DNA of 59,933 nt, counting the filler, from Dugesia japonica (lineage: Eukaryota), in assembly GCA_001938525.1 (NCBI GenBank). It is 6 parts of 6 records of this genome, joined end to end, with 100 filler letters (N's around TTAATTAATTAA, not from the genome) between each part and the next. Parts side by side here need not be neighbours in the genome. Positions count along the whole stretch, not along the records: positions 47,785 to 59,933 come from MQRL01608489.1; 5 more parts are not named here. One strand, 5' to 3'. The notes under the pieces were generated by a model. That model was not told the DNA's origin. It saw only the letters and a list, made by a program, of their open reading frames with translations, and did not search any database. Within the stretch, counting starts at the first letter, position 1, and each line of letters starts with the position of its first letter. The translations under genes and the position numbers were made by a program. This document shows, piece by piece, positions 16,000-57,344 of the stretch.

Positions 16000-17690
16000 A
16001 GATTTGTTGATAGAATATGCAAAGACATTGAATGGGACGTAGGTCACACACATCTGACAGGATAAAAAATAATCACAAGTGGTGAACCAATCAATGTCAA
16101 ACCGTATAGGCAACCAATGAACTTAGAATCTAAAATTGAAGAAGCTATCTAAAACCTTTTCGAGAATAATATTATCCAAAAATGCAAATCTCCATGGAAT
16201 ACCCCATTGATCTGTGTTTAGAAAAAACGAAACGAAAGACATAAGAATATGTTTGAATTTCAGACAATTGAATGTAGTAACGAAAAGAAAAGCTTTTTCT
16301 ATGCCTAATGTCAATGTAATGCTAAACAAATTAGATGGAGCCAAATATTTCAGTTCAATAGATTTGGGAAATGCATACTATCAAGTAGAGCTCGAAGAAG
16401 AATCTCAAGAAAAAACGGCGTTTTCAACAAAGTATGGAAAATGTTGTTTTAATAGAATGCCATTTGGCGTCACAGCGGCACCAGAGACATTTCAAGAGAT
16501 GATGACAAAAGTGGTAGGCGGCATAAATTGAGCCATGGTTTATCTTGAGATCAAGAATCTTAGAACAGTTGTGTAGTGGGCTAAGTAACAAAAAATTGGA
16601 ATGAATAGATGAAATAAACGATACCTTTGAAGGTCTAAAAATATCTCTAATGACTGCACCAATATTGTGTTTTTCAGACATAAACAAAGAATTTATATTA
16701 GATACAGATGCCAGTTTCGATACAATTGGAGCCGTATTGTCACAGAAAGATAAAAAAGGAAGAGAAAGAGTTGTTGCCTATGGATCACAGTCAATGACAA
16801 CTCATGAAAATGGCTACTGCATTACACGAAAGGAGTTATTGGCTGTTTATAAGATCTGTATACATTTCAAACATTACTTGTATGGTAGAAGATTTACTCT
16901 TAGAACAGATCACAAAGCTTTAACTTTCATGATGACGACGAAGAAACCAAATTCGTTGCAGTTTCAGACATTTATTAATCATCTGAGTAGTTTAGACATG
17001 GTTTTGGAATATAGAAAAGAAATTCAACATAGTAATGCAGATATATTATCTAGACCAAGATGTGAGGTATGTGTACAATGTCAAATGTTACATTAAGATG
17101 CCCAAAAAAAGGAAGATTAAGACGAGAATACTAAACATGATTGAAAAGGAAAAGGTAGAGTAATTAAACATTTCTGAGGACACAGAATTAATCAAGAAAA
17201 TAAAAATTTCGGAGGACAAAATACATAAGACAATAGAAGAAATACATAAATTATTATGTCATGCAGGAGTTGAGAAGGTGTATGAATACATGAGAAACAC
17301 ATACATTGCTAAGAATTTGTGGAGCCAAATACATAAGATAGTTCGTAGTTGAGAAATTTGTCAGAAGACCAAAGTAGTGACAACACCAACTAAAGAGAAG
17401 ACAAAGAGTTTAGAAGCTACCAATTTATTTGAAGTGATATTCACAGATATATGTGGGCCAATGTGGGAAACAAGTGAACGAAAAAAATAAATTCTTAGAA
17501 TAATCGACCAGTACAGTTAATATCTAGTTCTTATACCATTGCCCAGAAAAGACGAGGAAACAATACGAAAAGCTATTTTTGAAAAGTGGATATTGAGATT
17601 TAGATGTCCAATAGAAATAAGACTCGATTGTGGAAAAGCTTTTGAGAGAGTTTGCATTGAAGTTAGATATTAAACTTTGCTTTTTGAGTC
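16000..17690 (+). mobile_element. Ty3/Gypsy LTR-retrotransposon pol fragment (RT, RNase H, integrase), decayed, inside the Polinton
   Basis: PINVKPYR..SPWNTP; IRICLNFRQLN..FSSIDLGNAYYQ..KTAF..RMPFG (RT, cut at the YLDD region); FILDTDASFDTIGAVLSQ..RKELLA..RTDHKAL (RNase H); HKLLCHAG zinc finger and FTDICGP..IDQYS..IRLDCGKAF (integrase). Confidence 0.92.
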
Positions 17691-18180
17691 TAAGAAACAG
17701 TCTGTTATTTGGATATGCTTGTCTTGCTAGAAAATCAACAATAGTTTGATCTCTAGAATTTTTAAATAGTACCAAATATTGTACGTTTAAATTGTGGATT
17801 CTATGACTACCTCCTTGATGACATAGATTTTGAGTAATAAAAATTACAGTCACATTCCGATGTCTCGATATATTTATGAATAAATGATTAAAATCCTTTT
17901 CTTTAATAGCCTCCTGATACAGATCATCAACAACAATAACATTACTTGTTTTTAATCTTTTGTTCCAATTCTTTTCAAAACCATTTATAATTTTCATTTT
18001 AATATTACAAAATTCAGATTTAGTCAGTTCGTGCTTCTCATCTGCACCCCTATGCCAGTATATGTTTTTAAATTTGGACTTGAATAAATTCGATTTTAAT
18101 AACTGACATACAAACAAAGTTTTATCACTACCACTAGGTCCAACAATTGGATATACTGCATCATTTTTTAATCTCTTCAT
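17690..18180 (-). pseudogene. A32-like/FtsK-HerA DNA packaging ATPase of the Polinton, 3'-truncated
   Basis: IVGPSGSDKT (Walker A with G>D), IVVDDL (Walker B), SRHRNVTVIFITQNL, NVQYLVLFKNSRD; the C-terminal part of ORF 17524-18219 is antisense Gypsy sequence. Confidence 0.88.
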
Positions 18181-18324
18181 TTTGTTTTTTTCCTTTAATT
18201 TATTCGTAATATAATACAATGATTATAATTAATGGTTTGAACCAGAGTTATTTCTTGTCTAAGACTTTGTATATAAATGTGTTCTCAACAGAAAAACTAG
18301 TAATACTTGGACTTAAAAATTTGT

Positions 18325-27070: not shown

Positions 27071-27169
27071 AATATTATTACTTATTGAAAAAAAATGATT
27101 GGATATTATTTGAGTTTATTAAATAATCATTATATGAAAATACATAGATTGGGTGCAAATTATACTTAC

Positions 27170-28016
27170 TGTCATGTGTTTTCTTGTTAGTATTGGCTGA
27201 TAAATCTATAGAATTGTTATCTGCAGAGTTGTTGTTTAAATTGGTCCCATTAACATTCATAACTGAAGAAAAAACGGATGGAAATCCTTTTGGTACTTGA
27301 AATAAATCATTATTTGTAAATGATAAACTGTTTGTTGTATTTGTAAGATTAGAACTTTCAGAATTTGTAGACATTAATGTAGAGCCAGTTAAAATTGTAT
27401 TTGGAGAACTACAAGAGAATCCAGAATTACTGGCAGAAATCACAGGGCTGTTTCCATTAACTGCTGCATAAGCATTCATCATGTGTTGGTGTAATGATGG
27501 TAAACCAAATTGACTGTGTAAACTGGATAAAATTGGTGATGTAATCAATTGGCCAGGATTTAAACCACTAAACCAGTTAGCTCCATTCAATCTTGGATTA
27601 ATTGATGGTACTTTATTTGACATTGGAAATGGTAAAGACAATCCTACTGAACAAAAATTGTCTATATTTGGAGAGAGTTTTTCATCATTTGCAGTTGGTT
27701 GGGGACTAGGATTAGCAGATTGTTGCATAATAAGATTAAATAAACTACTTCGGTTTTGAAGAGAGTTTGAAAGATGATTAAATGATTTTAAAGGAGATTG
27801 AGATAGAAACTCTATTGACATTGAATTATTTCCTGATGAAGTTCGAATGGATCTCTGGTCCAAAGTTAACGGATCTATGATTGATTCTTCATTTGAATTT
27901 CCAGAAGGATAATGCTCTTTATACTCGTTTTTAGGGGATATTTCGCCTTTATTCTTTTCATCATTTCCATCATTATCCAAAACATCTAATGTCTTATTGG
28001 AATATGCAGAGTTTCT
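27170..28016 (-). CDS. Internal exon of a host gene, Ser/Asn/Pro-rich disordered region (possibly a transcriptional regulator)
   Basis: Uninterrupted frame of about 280 codons; acceptor ttatttttatttag at 28017-28018 in frame with ORF 27078-27980; donor GTAAGT at 27169. No recognisable domain. Confidence 0.75.
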
Positions 28017-29419: not shown

Positions 29420-29926
29420 CTAACTGAAATCTGGCTTCGTTTGGCCTTTACGATAATTTATTTCCTGCATTGAATATTTACGCTTTAACAAGCATAAAAT
29501 ACCAAATAGAAAAGAAATTAGAATTGCGGTGGCTACAACTAAACTGATAATGGCTGTCCAATGTGACTTTTTCTCTGGTGTCCATATTGGATTGGTAAGA
29601 TGCTTTTTATCTGAATTATCGCTGATAACATTTACGATGAGGTAGGTTTGCGATGACATCTGAGGAGTCCCGTGGTCGACTGCCCGGATATGAACTTTAA
29701 TTTCATAGGAATATGTACAAGTCGGAAATTTATTAATCAAATACAATTGGCCCCCATTTGTTTCGATATCAAAAAAGTTTTGATGACGTGATTGAGGAGG
29801 TAGAATATTATGTGATGGAAATGGAAGTAAAATATAACTGATTTCTTTCGCAGGACCATAATCCGAGTCATTAGCTTGAATACGAGCAATCATCTGGTTA
29901 GGTAATTCATTACAGGAAACATTTAT
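29420..29926 (-). CDS. Exon of a cadherin/protocadherin: last cadherin repeat, transmembrane helix and start of the cytoplasmic tail
   Basis: IARIQANDSDYGP..ISY, FFDIETNGGQL, IRAVDHGTPQMSS..LIVNV cadherin motifs; hydrophobic WTAIISLVVATAILISFLFGILCLL then KRK; in-frame acceptor AG at 29927-29928; ends at stop 29420 or donor GTTAGT at 29424. Confidence 0.88.
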   Translation of the reverse strand: MNVSCNELPNQMIARIQANDSDYGPAKEISYILLPFPSHNILPPQSRHQNFFDIETNGGQLYLINKFPTCTYSYEIKVHIRAVDHGTPQMSSQTYLIVNVISDNSDKKHLTNPIWTPEKKSHWTAIISLVVATAILISFLFGILCLLKRKYSMQEINYRKGQTKPDFS

Positions 29927-39809: not shown

Positions 39810-40550
39810 GAAATCAAGGCAATAAAAAATCAAGTGTAATAAAAAAAGTGAAAAGCTCCAAGTATACAGAAATCGATGCAGCTCTTTTAACATGGTTCAA
39901 GCTTCAGAGAGGAAGGGATATACCCATTGACGGACTTATACTAAAAAGCAAAGCTACATTGATAGCAAGTGAATTTGGAATAAATCGGTTTGAATGTTCA
40001 AGCAGTTGGATTTCCCGATTTAAAAAATGATAGGTAGTAGGTAGATAGTGCAGCACTGGAACAGTTGCATTTATTTGGGCAAAGGGAGGGGGGGGGTTTC
40101 CATCAATTGTTCTTCAAAATTTGCTCTTCAATTTTTGTGGTTCAATTTTTTGTTCAATATGGTTGAATACAAGTGGAAGCCAAATCAGTCGATGTAAACT
40201 CTGTTAAATCATGGCTAGAAGATGAATGGCTGCATTAAAGAAAAGGATATGCCGGCAAAGATGTTTTTAATCCAGATGAAGCTGGGTTATTTTATAAAGT
40301 TAGTCCAAATAAAACTCATAAATTTATAGTCGAAAAATGTACAGGTGGAAAGCTATCAAAAGAGAGAATAACAGTGCTTTTTTGTGCAAGCATGACTGGG
40401 GAAAAAAGACAGCTTCTAATTATTAGGAAAAGTAAGAATCCGAGATGTTTTAAAAATCAAAATTTGACGAGATATAAATACTATTCCAATTCTAAAGCAT
40501 GGATGACTTTCAGTATCTTTCAAGAGGAATTAATCCAAATAATTTTAAAA
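39810..40550 (+). pseudogene. pogo/Tigger transposase pseudogene (CENP-B HTH and DDE_1)
   Basis: KYTEIDAALLTWF..IPIDGLILKSKA..F.CSSSWISRFKK; VFNPDEAGLFYK..GGKLSKERITVLFCASMTGEK..KSKNPRCF..NSKAWMT. Confidence 0.88.
40036..40165 (+). mobile_element. Polinton-like terminal fragment interrupting the pogo transposase
   Basis: AGTAGGTAGATAGTG identical to the 10216 terminus, followed by a G-tract. Confidence 0.5.
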
Positions 40551-41109
40551 TAGGAGAAGATAAGTTAGTTGCAATATTAAAATTTTTTTAAATAGTTTAT
40601 AAATTTTAATTTTCAATTATTTCTTCTTAAAATACGTGGTATTTGCAAAAAATGCTAGATTTAATTGTAGTATATACTAAGTGTTAATTATTTTTGTTAC
40701 TATAGCAACTGGTATATTCAAAAAAATTCTTTAATAGTTTGTTTTTAAAAATTAAACAAATAAACATAAATTATTTAGTGTTCTCAATGCAATGTGTCCA
40801 ACTCTGCTTATTTTTAAAAAAATTGTAAGTACATATGTATTTGGAATATTTAAATTTTTATCAACTATAAATTAATTTCAATATTATTTAAGCAATTTTT
40901 TGTTCATTATCGACAAATTATACTTGACTTCGAAGATAATTCAGTTATATTCTAATAAGAAATTTGTAAATATATAGTTCTGCTTATTATATTTTAATAA
41001 ATAATTATTCAATTAATTAAAATATTAGCTAAACAACGTTTTGCGTAAATTACAAATAATACGACTTCAAATTCAATTATTCGTATTAATTATTAACATT
41101 TTAATTTAC

Positions 41110-43190
<2,081 letters not shown>

Positions 43191-44499
43191 GTATAAACAA
43201 TAAATATTTTAAAAACTTAAAATCCATTTTTTTTTGTTTTTAATAATTTAATTAAATTTTTTTAGAAATTATTTTAAATTGATTATTTTCAAAATTTTAA
43301 AAATCAAAGATGAAATCTCAAAAAAAACCTTTGTTATTTATCTATTTTAACAATATTGGCATCTAGAAATTTCGAAATCTTGGGAAAATGTGTTTATGAT
43401 TTGATTTATATTTAAACTTTATGCTTGAAAATTAAGATATATTTTCATAACTAAAGTAGAAATGATAAACAAGTTTTCCTGAAATAGAATAACAAACATA
43501 ATTGTTTATTTAAAGCATTGATGCACAAACCGTTATCCAGATTCCATAGACTAATTTGTCTGCAAATAATTTTCAAATAAATAATAATTTACTATACCCA
43601 TTATTATGAAGTAATTCGATTAATTTATTTAGACTGGTATCTGCTTTGATAAAAGTAAAAGAATAAATTAAATAGTAATGTATCTCATGCTGACGTGTGT
43701 GATGTATTAAAAGTATTACAAAATCTACAATTTCATTTAAAAAAACCAATCCATTAATTTATACAAAAAATTGTGAAATATGAAACTTTAAGCTAAATAG
43801 TGATTTGTCTTGTGTTGAAGTATGTGAGGTTTTAGAAACAGATCCTGAAACTATTTTATCTTTATCTTCTTCTGAAAGCTTAAAAAAATTTAAACTTTCA
43901 ATTGAAAATGCTCTTAAAAATATTTTATATACAAAAGTTGTATCACAATCTCATAAGGTTATAAATATGTTCAATAATAAATCTATAATAATAATAATAA
44001 TGATAATAATAATAATAATAATAATAATAATATGATAATTATATAATAATCTATTATATACTAAAAATAATAAATAAAACAGTCAAACTGATGTTGCGGC
44101 CTACAAAAAAGGCTGTGCACCACCGATTTAATGTCTCTTCAAAAATAACTGATGCTTATTTGATTTTAAAATCAATAAATCTATTTTTGTGTCGATTTCA
44201 AAAAAAAGTTTTACGGCATTTAAAATTATAGACACGCCTACACCATAACATGATTTTTGACATTATAATGATAATTAATATAAATATAGAATAATTTNAA
44301 AAAATGAAACAGCTACAAAGTTATTATTTTATTAATTATGCATGTATGAAATATTTTAGTTGACTTAGCATTCTAGAGAAAAATAAACTGCAGACAAAAT
44401 TGTAGACAAAATAGTATATAATATTATTCAACTTAATAAATAAATATGTCGAAAATAAATAATTTGAAATTTTCAGATATTTTACGATTTTACTATTAT

Positions 44500-44832
44500 T
44501 TCATTAAATTAAATGCTTCGATAAAAATCTTTATTTAGGTCTTGATAGTATTTCGAATTTTTGACTTTGTCTTCATCAGGAATTGACTTTTTGACTTATT
44601 CAATATTTATTGTTACAATAGAAATATGTTTTTGAATTAATTTATTTTATTGAATGAAAAATTAACCAACGAAAATTCATTAGTCAATTGATTAATATAT
44701 TCATTCAAAATTAAAACGTTATTAATATTAGGTGACTACTTTATTGTTTTACAATTACAGTTATTACGAGAATGATTGTTGGACGTAGCCATTGATCGTT
44801 TTTCAGAATTCATTAAAATAAAAGCTTCGATC
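44500..44832 (-). repeat. Hammerhead-bearing repeat unit with terminal direct repeat (~310-bp period)
   Basis: Begins and ends with ttcattaaa(t/a)taaa(t/a)gcttcgat; minus strand reads AATTC-CTGATGA-A-GAC-AAA-GTC-AAAA-AT-TC-GAAAT. Confidence 0.65.
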
Positions 44833-45363
44833 ATGATCGTACTGAGGCTCATCCTTTACCATCGCTTTTGGAAAGCGATTTTTCTGAAATAATTGAGAAT
44901 ATGCAATATTTTCACATCGAATATCAATTATCTGTATAAGAATTTATTGGTTTTTACTCTAGTATAAAGACTTCTGAAAAATTAACAGTTAAAGAAATGA
45001 TTTCGGTGGTTATAGAAAACAATGATTTGTCATCTGAATCTGGAAAAGAAAATGAAAATGTGCACATTGCTAAAAAAAACTATTTTTCCAACAGTTTGTC
45101 AGTTAAATGATGCATTATATAATATTCATAGATTCTTAATGTTTTTCACCAAGGAAGCACCTAGAAACATCAACAAATTTGTTTCTATCCTTTCAAAGCA
45201 GCATACAAAATTCATTTAAACCAACTTCAACAATAGGCTTTTTTAAAAAATAAAATTTGTTATCTAAGAGTGTTTTTATTTATTGGTAATGTGCTTTAAC
45301 ATGTAAATTATATAAATTATTAATAGATCATATTGACTTTTTATTATGTAATCGTTTTTTTAA

Positions 45364-46988
45364 CCTTTTTAAGGTTAAGTTTTTTAAGACGTTTTTGAGT
45401 GTTTAGGGTCATTTATGACCCCATTTCGGGAACATGAATTGATGTGAAATATTGTCATAAAAATTATTTATTGCTGAAATTTTTAAAGTTTTTAGAATTT
45501 TTTCAGATAATAACACCCCATTTATATCTCGTAAATCTCTTTGTGATAAACAAATAAGCGAAGTTTTAGATAGTTTAGCCGATTTGAAGGTTGATAGTGA
45601 AGAAGAACTTATTTATGATGAAGATTCGGAAGAAAAAGACAATTTCTTGCCTAATGACGATTCAAAAGAAGAAGACAATATCTTGTCTTATGAAGAAGAC
45701 TCAGATGAATATGATGATTAGGATTGCGTAACCTCAAGAGATGGAACAAAATGGAGGAAAACTTCCCCCTCTCTTCAACGAAGAACTTTGAAACAAAATA
45801 CTCTACAAGTAGCACCTGAACTTACAGTCATCAGTTAAAACATAGACACACCAATAAGTGCATTTCAGCTGCTTTTTGATGATAGTATCTTCAATACGAT
45901 AATAAATTGTTCTGAAAAGAATGCCGCACAACTCGGTCATCCTGAATGGAAATTGAATAGAGAATCATTGAATGCTTTTAATGGAATCCTAATTTTGTTT
46001 GGCGCAACAAGAGAAAGAAAGGAATCAATCAAATGGGTTTGGAGTGATGACGGTGCATTTTGCTGACCAATTTTCAAGTCCACAATGGGACGTGATGCTT
46101 TCCAAAATATATTGCATTTCATTAGAACAGATAATCATGAAACTTGTCAGGAGCGCAGAGGTTTCAATAAATTAGCTCCAATAAGAGAAGTTTGGTAAAT
46201 TTTGTTATCTAGTCAGCATAACGATCAGGCAGTTAGCACTGCAGAACATGCTAAGCCAGATATTAAATTGGATTACAACAAATTTAATGGTGCTGTTGAT
46301 AGTGCTGACAAGATGCTCAAAGAAATTTCTTGTCACAGAATCTCAAAAAAATGACCGTTTGTTCTTCTCACCCATATTATCAATCTTCGTGCATTCAATG
46401 CTTATGTGCTTTACAAAAAGAAATTTCCAAATACAGCACTGACAAGACTTAATTTCCTCAAAGATTTGGGTTCTGAACTCGTGAAACCTGCTATCAAAAC
46501 GAGGGCAAATCCTCCAAGAACAGGAATACCATTGTCATTTCCAAGCAGCTATGGCATCAGTTATAGGCCCTCTATAACAAAAGGTTCCACCACCAATACC
46601 AGCTAATTCAGGAAAAGGGAAAAGAAATCGCTGTTCATTCTTTCCAAGGTCGAAACACACCAAATATAGTGGTATATGTTCGTTATGCTCTCCATACATT
46701 TACCCTGGACATACAGAATCCAATGTAACAAGTTGTTCGAACTGTAATGTTTAATTATTTGTAGCTATTAATTTACTTTCTATTACATTTTGGTTTTCCT
46801 TTCATAAATATAAATTTTAGTATATGAATATTTGAAAATAAAGCTTTAAAGTCCCCGAGTATAATTTTTGATCATTTCTTTCGATTGAGGAACCTTAATA
46901 ACATGTTTAAAACAAAAAAACGATTGGGGCCAAATATGACCCTAATTTAGTACTCCGTGTATCATGAGGGGTTTTAGGTAGAGGAAGG
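45364..46988 (+). mobile_element. piggyBac transposon, internally deleted transposase pseudogene
   Basis: TTAA|CCTT...AAGG|TTAA ends; subterminal inverted repeat agggtcatttatgacccc / ggggccaaatatgaccct; DGTKW, TMGRDAFQNILHFIR.D, KLAPIREVW, KP..LDYNKFNGAVDSADKM, and a C-terminal Cys-rich domain remnant. Confidence 0.9.
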
Positions 46989-47784: not shown

Positions 47785-49790
47785 ATTTTCAAAATTCGAT
47801 CAAAATATCAATAATTACTGTCATTTTTATTATGACAGTTATTCTATCATTTCTTATGACAATATCCATTCATCTCGCATCCTGTGTATATTTACAAACT
47901 ATGTATTGCAGAAAAATTTATTTTAATTATGTAAAACTTTATTTATTTATTTTTATACGGCTAATTTTGATAAAATAAAATGCTTTATATTTCTTCTTGT
48001 ATAACAGAAATTAGTATATATATATATATATACCGATGTAATGGCCAGTGGCGATACTTCGTAAAAATCTCTGAAGGTATTGGATCACAGATGACAAAAT
48101 ATTTATAGAAACGAAATTATTTAGGTTTCATTCTCAGTGAGCAGTGAATATCTCAATTGATAGAGTACATAAATTTAATTAATTAAGATAATTAACTAGA
48201 TGAAAATATTCACTAAAAATCGATGAAATACGTTCACAGAAATATTACCAATGTCTAATTTAGATAGGTTTTTATTTTATGATTTCATCAAATTTTTGAA
48301 TTTGTTCTTATAAGAATTTATAATATTTACTGTTAAGCTTTTTATTCATCCTTTGTAATATTATATGGATAGAATTAAAATTTACTGTTATAAAATTAAT
48401 ATATTATATTAATGTTTATGTCGGTATAATTTTTAATATTTCATATCACCGGAAGATCATTAAATTGTAGCAATCGTGAATAATAAAATATCAAATAATT
48501 AGTGATTATAAAACAAAGTATAAAAATAGATGCATATCTGGTAGGCCCTAAACAAAGGCTCACTAAAACATATCAGTAATTATTAGTTAAATTATGTAAA
48601 TTGTGTGAAGCTGTATTTTAATGTATATAGTGAATATAATTTATGAAACTGTAAAATCAATGAATGAATATAGATTATCCCGAGTGATCATGTAAATTAT
48701 AAAATTTTTGTAACAACAAAAATATTTATTTGAATTTGAAAAGCAANNNNNNNNNNNNNNNNNNNNNNNNNNNNNNNNNNNNNNNNNNNNNNNNNNNNNN
48801 NNNNNNNNNNNNNNNNNNNNNNNNNNNNNNNNNNNNNNNNNNNNNNNNNNNNNNNNNNNNNNNNNNNNNNNNNNNNNNNNNNNNNNNNNNNNNNNNNNNN
48901 NNNNNNNNNNNNNNNNNNNNNNNNNNNNNNNNNNNNNNNNNNNNNNNNNNNNNNNNNNNNNNNNNNNNATAAGAGTTTCTGACAATTATATTTGAAAATT
49001 GAATCAATTTAAAATTTTACGGAGTAGATCCTGAACCCTTCAATTGTTTCGTTTTATTGAAAGTTGACATGTGGCCAATTGGTGATCGACATAGCAGAAT
49101 CATTTTTATTGGTAGATTTGCAAATACAGAATTATTTCAAAATTTTGTATTTGTCAATGTTTCATTGGTTGAGTAATGTGTGCAAAATTTTTGGATNNNN
49201 NNNNNNNNNNNNNNNNNNNNNNNNNNNNNNNNNNNNNNNNNNNNNNNNNNNNNNNNNNNNNNNNNNNNNNNNNNNNNNNNNNNNNNNNNNNNNNNNNNNN
49301 NNNNNNNNNNNNNNNNNNNNNNNNNNNNNNNNNNNNNNNNNNNNNNNNNNNNNNNNNNNNNNNNNNNNNNNNNNNNNNNNNNNNNNNNNNNNNNNGATTT
49401 TTCTAAAGTTGGGTAATCGATTATTTACGTCTATTCTGTAGACGCACTTAAATTAAACTTGGTGGAATCAGCAACCCAACAAAATTGTGTTATTATGAAA
49501 TCACAGGAATTGATAATTATTAAATCATGATTTAGTTTATGATATTTCAGATTATAGATGAATGTTTCATAGATATATGAATAATTAGTTTTATTGTTTA
49601 CCAAATATTGTTAATAAATTTGGTATTTTCAACTTAACAAAAATAATATATATTATTAGTTTTAAGGATCACATAAGAACTCATTTCATTTCATGTGTTG
49701 TATTGTATCATTGCTCGATACAATATCTTGTAATATATTATTGTATTGATATAATTCTTCTTTTTAAATAATTTAATTTTTGTATGAAAA

Positions 49791-50405
49791 ATGATCTGTG
49801 AACATTATGCATATATGTATATGTATATGTATTTCAATGTATGGGACCAGAAATCACATATATTCATCGGCCCATCGAATATTGGCAAAACATGTTTCGC
49901 GCTTGCACATTTTAATAGTCCTGTGCACGTGAAAGGCTTACAAAATTTTGGACGAATTTCATCTGATCCAGAAGTAGTAGACGGTATCGTTATTGATGAC
50001 ATTCCTTTGTCAAATTTTCCAACTAATGAACTTTTGGGTATACTTGACATTTGTTACGAAAATCCAATAAATATAAAATATTCAACCGGATACCTTCCAG
50101 CTTTCTGTCCTCGTATTATATGTATGAATGATGCATCGCAACTTTTCCCTAAGAATGTAAAACCTGCTATACTTGAAGCTATTTATCGGCGAATTGTTAT
50201 CCACAATTTTTCTGACAAATTATATGAGAAATATATTGATCTAAGTACTTTACAGACGGAGAAGATGACATCTTACAAGCCGAGAGCTGGAATCAACGTA
50301 GGCATTGGTACTGCGAAGTCGGGCACAGCGAGGATGAAAGAGATATATGGGCCGCCCTCGACAAGCACCGCTGGATCGAGCAATGTTATTGTGGAGCCAA
50401 AGTAA
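49791..50405 (+). CDS. SF3 helicase domain of a CRESS-DNA-virus-type Rep; N-terminal HUH endonuclease not visible
   Basis: Walker A GPSNIGKT, Walker B GIVIDDI, B' INIKY, motif C RIICMN, arginine finger AIYRR; no internal stops. The first ~15 codons are (TATATG)n microsatellite, so the start is doubtful. Confidence 0.85.
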   Translation: MICEHYAYMYMYMYFNVWDQKSHIFIGPSNIGKTCFALAHFNSPVHVKGLQNFGRISSDPEVVDGIVIDDIPLSNFPTNELLGILDICYENPINIKYSTGYLPAFCPRIICMNDASQLFPKNVKPAILEAIYRRIVIHNFSDKLYEKYIDLSTLQTEKMTSYKPRAGINVGIGTAKSGTARMKEIYGPPSTSTAGSSNVIVEPK

Positions 50406-50512
50406 AAATGTCTTCATTTCACAAGGAGTCATGTTGGCAGTTTTTTAAAAACTATTGTGATTCTTGTTTACTGGCTGAACATAACTATAGAATAAATAAA
50501 AAAAAACTTTGA
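50256..50512 (+). CDS. Putative spliced exon overlapping the Rep C-terminus, Cys/His/Trp-rich small protein
   Basis: Stop-free alternative frame 50240-50509 (DGEDDILQAESWNQRRHWYCEVGH..HRWIEQCYCG..HKESCWQFFKNYCDSCLLAEHNY..), preceded by acceptor CTAAG-TACTTTACAG (AG 50254-50255); AATAAA at 50491. Confidence 0.5.
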
Positions 50513-50696
50513 TGTTAATTAGTGAATTTTAATTGTTTAAGTGTGTTAAAAAAAATAATAAATGTATTTTAATTTAAATTTAGTTGTCTTTATTTGGTTA
50601 TTGATTTTATTAATTTTATCTTTAAGTGGTTTTATTTATGTTCTTTCTTATTTTTTGGTAATAAGTAATAATCATTGTAATATAACTATGTAAAGA

Positions 50697-51362
50697 ATGG
50701 CTTCTTTCTATGAAGACCTTACACGATTTTGTTTTCAGTTTATTACTAGGTCTAGCTTCACTATTAATAATAGCCATAGTAACGCGATTATTAATGCTTA
50801 CGAAAAACATAATATGGTATTTGATACTGGCATTAATGAAATGGATGAAAAGCTATTGGCAATATATCTGGTCCTTAACGGAAAAGCCGGCAAAACGAAT
50901 GGAATTTTATTTGTCGGACCACCGGGAGCCGGAAAGTCCCTTTTTATGCAAGTCCTCGCTTCCGATTTTAAGAAAATAGGCAATTTTAATATTTTAAATT
51001 TTAAATCAGAATTTGCTTTAGATGATTTAGCCGATGCAGACATAGCTATAGGTGACGAAATTATTTTCGAAAATATGAATATGGCTACCTATTTCAATTT
51101 ACTACTCGAGGGCTCAACCAATTTAAAGATATCAATTAAAAATATAGATAAAATCCCTTTTAAAAGAATTCCTGTTATGGTAGCCGGTAATTCATTTCCC
51201 TGGTATTATACTTCCCAAATTCGCCCAGCCACATTGGACAGATCATTACTTATCGAATGCTTTGAACCATATTCTTTCAATTACAATTCAAATATATATA
51301 ATCAGGATAAAAACGTTTTCAAATCTGTAAAACAATCCATGTTTAAGCATCTAAAAGTATAA
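50697..51362 (+). CDS. Stand-alone SF3 helicase of parvoviral NS1 / papillomaviral E1 type
   Basis: GKTNGILFVGPPGAGKS (Walker A), SEFALDD..IAIGDE (Walker B), LLEG..ISIKN (B'), IPVMVAGN (motif C), LDR finger; intact 221-aa ORF with good start context AGAATGG. Confidence 0.9.
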   Translation: MASFYEDLTRFCFQFITRSSFTINNSHSNAIINAYEKHNMVFDTGINEMDEKLLAIYLVLNGKAGKTNGILFVGPPGAGKSLFMQVLASDFKKIGNFNILNFKSEFALDDLADADIAIGDEIIFENMNMATYFNLLLEGSTNLKISIKNIDKIPFKRIPVMVAGNSFPWYYTSQIRPATLDRSLLIECFEPYSFNYNSNIYNQDKNVFKSVKQSMFKHLKV

Positions 51363-51364
51363 CA

Positions 51365-51680
51365 TTACACACAGCACAGTGTGTCATCTGCGTTGTGATT
51401 TTCACAAAAACTATAGTGTAATTACACGTGTAATATTAATATATATTTCATTGTGTTATTTTTCCTTTATTTAGTTTGTGAAATAGTGTGTTGTGTGTGT
51501 AGAATTACACGTGTAGTAGATGATATGTTAGGTAAAAAACACGGAGATTTTCAATGCGATATACTTACATTGTTTGTGTTTATAGTATTGAGGGGGGGTC
51601 GGAAAGATGTATTTCCTTTATTTGGGGGGTGCGTGCATGAACAAAAATTTTTTTGGGGGGATGGCCCAGCGCCATATAAT
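51365..51680. promoter_or_regulatory. Putative viral terminal/origin region with palindromes and G-tracts
   Basis: Perfect palindrome ATTACACGTGTAAT (51421-51434), second TACACGTGTA (51506-51515), three G-runs, hairpin ATGGC-CCAGC-GCCAT (51661-51675). Confidence 0.4.
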
Positions 51681-57079: not shown

Positions 57080-57344
57080 AGGTTTTGATGGAATTGTATC
57101 CAAATTTAAAGGTGAATTTCATATGCCAGGTTATAATTTCTGCGGACCGGGCACTCGTACGGAATATAAACTTGATGAACTTAAACAACCAATGTTTGAT
57201 AGTATGCAAATTAATTCATTAGATGCTGATTGTATGGTACATGATATACAATGTGGTGATAAAAATTTAACAAAGAGATTTGGAGCTGACATGGATTTAA
57301 TTCAAAATTTACATATTGAAAGCAATACATGGGAAGAATCGTGA
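57080..57344 (+). pseudogene. Parvovirus VP1u-like phospholipase A2 (PLA2X) domain, adintovirus/Polinton type, probably decayed
   Basis: GEFHMPGYNFCGPGT (Ca-binding loop)..INSLDADCMVHDIQC (HDxxY with Y>C)..RFGADMDL. Confidence 0.8.

Follow-up and report, generated by a model that had tools for sequence, protein, structure and literature searches.

A conserved frame overprinted on the Rep tail of a probable flatworm DNA-virus-like element, and the spliced Rep isoform that it may serve

Circoviridae genomes are circles of about 2 kb that encode a single Rep and a single capsid protein, and circovirus Rep' has a frameshifted C-terminus. In protoparvoviruses, NS2 starts with the N-terminus of the replication protein and is then spliced into a frame overlapping its tail; it is not known to contain a complete nuclease or a zinc cluster. 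The polyomavirus small t has a Cys-rich C-terminal domain and an N-terminus common with the replication protein. PCV2 requires both Rep and its splice product Rep', and the two assemble into hetero-oligomers; what Rep' does there is given as undetermined (PMC10747457). Spliced Rep isoforms are reported in PCV2, geminiviruses and one nanovirus (bioRxiv 10.64898/2026.02.19.706752; PMC10747457). According to the accessible part of the former, splicing removes the oligomerisation domain from the isoforms of a geminivirus (TYLCV) and of the nanovirus, which bind the origin, repress the Rep promoter and are dominant-negative; geminivirus isoforms lacking this domain block replication. It was only recently that such isoforms were proposed there as a convergent switch across CRESS viruses (bioRxiv 10.64898/2026.02.19.706752).

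Among the closest known systems are the planarian virus-like elements PEVE of Girardia tigrina and PIVE of Schmidtea mediterranea (Repbase). Terminal inverted repeats and Rep-like ORFs are described for both, and a figure legend names PPV_E1_C, Parvo_NS1 and PF08398 domains; in a tree, PIVE_3p falls into a block that includes a circovirus Rep, and PIVE_1p into one with DENSOV_HM (PMC3198968, accessible text). This placement would match the two unlike helicases of the element described below. The descriptions of PEVE and PIVE in that text mention no introns or overprinted exons (PMC3198968). Further literature was covered in its accessible parts (10.1101/551184, PMC6186406, PMC13055364, PMC12772153, PMC7468197). 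The exon reported here was not described in the literature found; the original PEVE paper, the Repbase entry and the preprint supplements lie beyond that search and may annotate it.

The window, that is the whole stretch of DNA analysed here, comprises 59,933 nucleotides (filler included) of Dugesia japonica, joined from six records of assembly GCA_001938525.1. It is AT-rich animal DNA, from a fragmented 854-Mb assembly, and the features of the locus are collected in Table 1. The homology with other copies of the element has an abrupt left edge, adjoining a host TATATG repeat. The Rep-like frame spans 49788-50405, with the Walker A motif GPSNIGKT at 49869-49892, and the HUH endonuclease exons are missing from the window copy. 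Longer copies of Rep contain the SF3 helicase together with HUH motifs I-III. One longer copy matched Gemini_AL1_M (E 8e-4) and Viral_Rep (E 0.013), both below the cut-off, and the helicase Rep 7lar among PDB sequences (E 0.0013). The second helicase matched PPV_E1_C above the cut-off (E 4e-7) and Parvo_NS1 with an E value of 0.0015. Only about 70 residues precede its Walker A motif and an HUH domain is not visible. Therefore, the element has two SF3 helicases and one nuclease. The 43-aa ORF ahead of it had 1 stop in 342 codons, a pN/pS of 0.40 (0.25-0.63; 8 copies) and no match in the Pfam search; it is conserved, and its peptide probably crosses the membrane once.

Contigs of unit length, 5.6 and 6.4 kb, carry inverted repeats at both ends and divergent minus-strand ORFs. 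The terminal arms at the ends of contigs L041 and L042 measure 84 nt and 216 nt. Unlike the genomes of the Circoviridae, these units of 5.6-6.4 kb are bounded by inverted repeats and have two helicase genes. The terminal inverted repeats and the pairing of a circovirus-like Rep with an E1/NS1-like helicase are shared with PEVE and PIVE, a match by description as far as the accessible text of that source goes. The element is integrated and DNA-virus-like, and by this likeness its host is probably a planarian flatworm. A Rep query of the same genome returned 574 candidates; many long open frames were found among the 150 that were scored, and the Rep matches fall into at least four deep lineages. 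The Rep-bearing elements are a large, little-described family.

Table 1. Features of the locus, in positions of the window
Feature	Coordinates	Strand	Basis or remark
PEVE/PIVE-like DNA-virus-like element, truncated at the 5' end (right part)	49830..51672	+	blastn vs other copies, 78-88% identity
C-terminal part of CRESS-type Rep: SF3 helicase and 49-codon tail	49830..50405	+	
Predicted 3' splice site within the Rep coding sequence	50235..50255	+	CAG conservation; sister-lineage introns
Exon X, entry phase 1, about 85 codons	50256..50512	+	pN/pS, column counts, AF2 model
Dual-coding overlap	50256..50405	+	first ~15 codons mainly Rep-constrained (Y-x-P-R-x-G), last ~33 mainly X
Candidate metal ligands (codon starts)	50312 C, 50324 H/C, 50366 H, 50384 C, 50390 C, 50420 H, 50432 C, 50456 C, 50465 C	+	
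EHNY, proposed HCF-1-binding motif	50477..50488	+	not conserved
AATAAA hexamers, candidate poly(A) signals	50491, 50495, 50557 (50491..50562)	+	sequence
Hydrophobic ORF, 43 aa, between frame X and second helicase	50562..50693	+	selection counts
Second SF3 helicase, papillomavirus E1/parvovirus NS1-like	50697..51362	+	Pfam
Right inverted-repeat arm	51364..51577	.	matches both ends of unit-length contig L042

The first-pass annotation had pointed out a 90-codon stop-free frame at 50240-50512, called frame X here. Its translation was as claimed, and it overlaps the last 49 codons of the Rep-like frame. The open frame was kept in 22 of 20000 base shuffles of this single stretch, a chance level uncorrected for the size of the window. 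A query with X gave 43 matches among 44 candidates in the same genome, with identity down to 32%. The alignment was made from 41 loci with one match each, and 37 non-redundant copies were left when four copies more than 99% identical were dropped. Within the overlap (49 codons, 37 copies), stops were counted in 7 of 1627 codons in X, 9 of 1661 in the Rep frame and 111 of 1628 in the third frame. Upstream of the acceptor, the X frame of the same 37 copies had 448 stops in 3959 codons. Past the Rep stop, X had 19 stops in 1029 codons against 57 in 1064 and 85 in 1028 for the other frames. The pattern that the annotation had named as speaking against a gene, namely stops in this frame or conservation of the Rep frame alone, was not found among the genomic copies.

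Selection was measured with 12 close copies, in which the Rep helicase core had a pN/pS of 0.11. In the overlap the ratio was 0.86 for the Rep frame and 0.27 (0.16-0.41) for X, and past the Rep stop, where X stays conserved for 35 codons, it was 0.15 (0.06-0.25). Two divergent trios concurred, with X values of 0.22 and 0.54 in the overlap and 0.08 and 0.24 beyond. Because the copies share descent, these stop and selection counts are not independent trials. Overlap-aware omega values of the close copies were 0.36 for Rep and 0.59 for X in the 5' part of the overlap, and 0.16 for X and 0.66 for Rep in the 3' part. Across three sets, the first 15 codons gave 0.36, 0.31 and 0.25 for Rep and the last 33 codons gave 0.16, 0.09 and 0.24 for X. 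Within the overlap, selection is handed over from the Rep frame to the X frame. The frame-specific comparison of selection and of Cys/His positions, which had been proposed as a check, found X constrained and its Cys/His residues kept. On the other hand, the Rep-frame tail over the same bases, taken as non-globular in the annotation, is not inert, since its first 15 or so codons are constrained in the Rep frame.

This constraint raises the question of whether X is no gene and stays open only because the Rep tail over the same bases is conserved and GC-richer. The Rep tail is indeed kept open, with 6 stops against 35.7 expected under the null, a null that overstates stops because the third frame is also below its own (89 vs 154). 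However, when codons were redrawn with the Rep-tail residues kept, 110 stops were expected in X against 5 observed, and conservation past the Rep stop is not accounted for by such a tail. A homologue from outside the genome also speaks against it. Among 1.84 billion protein representatives there were three matches to X, and P0004, from an outside sequencing assembly, is a true homologue (E 3e-10); P0005 and P0006 were judged by eye to be repeat proteins and rejected. P0004 and a Rep homologue, P0002, are each on a contig of 3032 nt, which suggests that both lie on one contig. The by-product explanation is thus highly improbable, and frame X is almost certainly a real overprinted coding exon. 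Other protein searches gave no candidate for X, either alone or among longer proteins, and no match for X or Rep was obtained in IMG/VR. When the X profile was run against 40 more Rep loci, one further copy only (L077) was found. The AATAAA hexamers noted near the frame end recur in 27 of 35 copies as candidate poly(A) signals.

The splice acceptor proposed ahead of exon X was recovered, with its AG at 50254-50255 and the first exon base at 50256. The AG closes a Gln codon of Rep. Among the 37 copies, one is rearranged and two are without the site; in the remaining 34, the Gln codon at this column is CAG in 33, compared with 26 of 85 at other Gln codons. The other conserved Lys/Glu/Gln columns reached at most 12 G in 29. 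Since Gln could also be encoded by CAA, the acceptor AG is constrained. Ahead of the acceptor, all 33 copies have a stop in the X frame no more than 10 codons away; in the 10 codons after it, 2 of the 33 have one. The branch-like CTAAG did not hold up, because it occurs in 1 of 31 copies and is private to the window copy. A TNAY word further upstream is present in 26 of 31 copies, which could also be explained by Ile-Asp codons of Rep.

Entry into X from unspliced RNA was considered against these counts. Ribosomes might shift frame by -1 as Rep ends, or might reinitiate at a Met after the Rep stop and make the last 34 codons only. X is the -1 frame of Rep, and the Met is present in 19 of 36 copies. 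However, it is Leu in 13 of 36, and X is constrained well ahead of it. An in-frame ATG ahead of Cys19 was found in 2 of 37 copies. In-phase slippery heptamers were limited to 7 of 34 copies and did not occur in the window, and frameshift entry was rejected on this ground. Early ATGs and slippery sites are too rare across the copies to account for the entry into X, and neither explains the conserved CAG, so an unspliced route is very unlikely. Short introns are already in use in Rep. Longer copies have an intron of 46-60 nt after exon 1 (8 of 18 fit the pattern) and another, of 52-55 nt, that separates HUH motif I from motif II (14 of 18); if the latter were retained, 13 of 14 would carry a stop or change frame. 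The element already relies on short spliceosomal introns inside Rep. X is very likely reached by splicing.

X must be entered in phase 1, and two candidate donors fit. One is the donor between HUH motifs I and II, which is the strongest conserved GT (17/17), is in phase 1 and must be used for Rep itself. Joined to it, X would follow about 150 N-terminal Rep residues without an active nuclease, giving a regulatory accessory protein to which protoparvovirus NS2 corresponds. The intron of this donor is, however, absent from L083 and from all four lineage-H copies examined, whose lineages retain the overprinted exon. It also leaves the second donor unexplained. The second donor lies 17-24 codons after the Tyr of RCR motif III, where a phase-1 GTA occurs in 35 of 36 copies of exon-bearing lineages but in 1 of 15 copies of two exon-less lineages; copies on contigs too short to reach the exon were in some cases placed by their lineage. 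The same GTA in phases 0 and 2 was found in 0 of 36 copies each. A product starting from the motif I-II donor is therefore unlikely, and it could coexist with one from the second donor.

Several features of the second donor point to its use. Where the Ser codon changes, the donor moves to a neighbouring Gly or Cys codon, and in several G and H copies it reads GTAAGT or GTAAGN. Each of the 24 copies with Ser(AGT) continues with T, M, K, I or N, all with codons starting with A. The Gemini_AL1_M match begins about 14 residues after the donor, so its place just ahead of the oligomerisation-domain match fits the endonuclease-oligomer linker. Synonymous redrawing gave 9.4 of 17 copies with the donor compared with 17 of 17 observed, and a joint probability of 0.027 over seven lineages; the donor window was picked after seeing the data, and the best other window reached 8 of 17. 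A tree of 49 helicase cores, which left out copies with gaps or many stops, including subfamily D, shows that two changes suffice for the absence of the exon, so the contrast of 35/36 with 1/15 counts as about two independent changes. The subfamily to which the window copy belongs has a weak form of this donor (A|GTAC). Overall, donor, acceptor and Cys/His domain occur together, and all three are missing where a lineage has a long in-frame Rep tail instead.

The best first exon for X would thus be Rep's own endonuclease exons, and the product a Rep'-like isoform. On balance, X would be spliced to these exons to make a helicase-less isoform ending in a predicted two-zinc domain. The phase-1 donor after RCR motif III would join the acceptor, and the splice would skip about 640 nt encoding the oligomerisation and helicase domains. 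The product would have about 216 Rep residues followed by about 85 residues of X, compared with the 480-residue Rep. By analogy with the known isoforms, it may retain origin binding and nicking but could not form the motor, and so may partner or tune full-length Rep and the second helicase in replication. The zinc domain may supply a new interaction surface. Because the window copy is without the 5' exons, it cannot itself make the isoform. Of the earlier reading of X, a second exon behind a conserved acceptor with its first exon in the missing 5' region stands, whereas Rep's own endonuclease exons fit better than a separate accessory protein.

A separate, host-acting protein would need another first exon, for which a second overprinted frame, Y, could serve. 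Frame Y runs across Rep exons 1-2 with its own ATG in L046 (G000:C75629), a region absent from the window. It has 3 stops in 705 codons, with a pN/pS of 0.43 against 0.73 for the Rep frame there (9 copies), so the frame overlapping Rep exon 2 is conserved. The Y-equivalent frames of lineages G and H contain a CxxC, a possible partner for the one CxxC in the terminal exon of these lineages, and the lineage-H intron in motif I is in phase 1 of the Y frame. However, Y of the window's lineage is without CxxC and stops before the strong donor, and no GT is conserved in phase 1 of Y. A further point against a host-acting protein comes from the motif proposed to bind HCF-1. [DE]HxY is the HCF-1-binding motif and is expected to be conserved and exposed. 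Here 11 of 28 copies have it and the divergent subfamilies all lack it, its acidic position is variable, and it lies inside predicted helix 68-83. Therefore, the HCF-1 idea was dropped. A separate protein starting in Y is quite unlikely.

The metal-binding-like Cys/His pattern fared better, with nine positions conserved across copies. In the pattern C-x3-[HC]-x13-H-x5-C-x-C-x9-H-x3-C-x7-C-x2-C, the ligands are kept, in order, in 31/35, 32/34, 33/34, 32/35, 35/36, 35/36, 32/36, 33/36 and 33/36 copies, that is 89-97%, and the second position alternates between His (21) and Cys (11), the kind of exchange that metal ligands typically show. Judged from the sequence, nine ligands would fit two zinc sites. 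The AF2 model of X is mainly helical with a pLDDT of 64, and Foldseek with this model gave no match at E<=0.001. For known zinc-finger families, the best Pfam E value was 0.0095, in 1 of 28 members only, and PDB sequences gave E values of at least 0.67. X had no match in Pfam, PDB, BFVD or the ESM Atlas, the best Atlas scores of 0.86 and 0.84 being leads only. X is probably a new, predicted zinc domain without relatives in these databases. It resembles small t in placing a Cys-rich C-terminal domain on a protein sharing the replication-protein N-terminus, but differs in having no profile or fold match.

The parent of the isoform resembles that of circovirus Rep', in that it is a Rep of CRESS type that combines HUH motifs I-III with an SF3 helicase. 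The arrangement is also alike, with a donor after the endonuclease, an acceptor near the 3' end and frame-changing phases, read here from sequence signals. Unlike in Rep', the alternative tail continues beyond the Rep stop for 35 codons, is the main target of selection in the overlap and contains nine conserved Cys/His residues. The setting differs from PCV by its inverted repeats, further introns and second helicase, and splicing is shown in PCV whereas we infer it here. The TYLCV and nanovirus isoforms, as presented in the accessible text of their source, keep an in-frame C-terminus or stop early, and none of them gains a conserved folded domain from an overprinted exon. NS2, on the other hand, does not correspond to the Rep'-like isoform. 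The case would add a probable new zinc domain to the spliced Rep isoforms, and dozens of diverged fossil copies record what selection retains in such an isoform. It also offers a first gene map at the level of exons for a planarian virus group that the literature found treats only as a helicase-bearing repeat; the PEVE paper or the Repbase entry may annotate it.

A wider proposal is tentative and rather improbable at this stage. A whole, unclassified group of flatworm DNA viruses, a chimera of CRESS and parvovirus/papillomavirus-like parts, may swap the Rep helicase for a new zinc fold by splicing, so that an HUH nuclease-zinc protein works with a separate, nuclease-less E1/NS1-like helicase. 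If true, the nuclease-zinc protein would be an origin-recognition, terminal-resolution or integration enzyme, and the replication machine would be split by alternative splicing and overprinting.

For the lineage comparison, 40 of the 150 scored Rep matches were retrieved. In the more distant sister lineages G and H, a real phase-0 GT-AG intron of 43-48 nt ends after the helicase at the point equivalent to the acceptor. It is followed by a phase-0 Rep tail of 36-44 aa and, in phase 1 as for X, by a frame with R-x-x-C-x-x-C. This CxxC frame runs past the Rep stop and is open for 54-59 aa in 10 of 11 fully read copies. Its pN/pS is 0.35 (G) and 0.24 (H) past the Rep stop, and 1.40 (G) and 0.78 (H) inside the overlap. 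By hhalign, the comparison of X with the G/H CxxC frames was not significant (probability 1.3%), nor was that of the Rep tails with each other. A Rep lineage without the overprinted exon (L055, L057-L060, L064, L065, L068, L072, L082) has a long acidic in-frame tail of about 100-160 aa. A short intron precedes this tail in some copies, and L058, L065 and L068 are intron-less. Intron positions differ between Rep lineages.

RNA reads were taken from seven runs, using only 6-26% of each raw run. Mapping of runs X5, X8, X4 and X1 on L041 gave 46, 5 and 2 reads, none of them at least 95% alike, and 35 contigs without a GT-AG joint. When runs X5, X6, X7 and X2 were mapped on L022, each RNA run yielded 43-45 reads, chiefly in the flanks and in low-complexity stretches, and again no GT-AG joint. 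Hardly any read of the RNA runs fell on the element itself. A single contig, which may or may not derive from RNA, reads through the acceptor without a splice. None of the retrieved copies carries all the differences shown by run X5 (best 4/6, 6/8 and 4/5). Since no junction was seen at almost no coverage, the reads neither support nor refute splicing, which we infer.

Other features were seen in copies of the element. Over the 5' part of the E1-like gene, another overprinted frame (50686-50979) stays open, with 1 stop in 675 codons against 111 in 674 for the third frame; it has a pN/pS of 0.99 and a hydrophobic stretch at its start. On the minus strand of L041 (1-2953), ORFs of 609, 133 and 227 aa diverge from the replication genes, and none of the three had a Pfam match. 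As the fold of the 609-aa ORF reached a pLDDT of 34 without a Pfam or PDB match, a 'capsid' label is only a guess. In L029 (G000:C196154), a decayed copy is repeated head-to-tail with a period of 5218 nt, and contigs C196153-C196155 carry identical X stretches. Elsewhere in the window (16211-18222, 27078-28016, 29420-29926, 40239-46606), remnants of Gypsy-like RT/RNase H, a Polinton-like ATPase and a DDE transposase were noted with two host-like exons, one of them cadherin-like; DDE_1 was confirmed by Pfam and the rest were recognised by eye. A fragment of a parvovirus-type phospholipase A2 (PF08398, E 1e-6) lies at 57081-57344. It is 70% identical at the DNA level to the lineage-H locus L084 and is therefore likely to be a second insertion of a related element.
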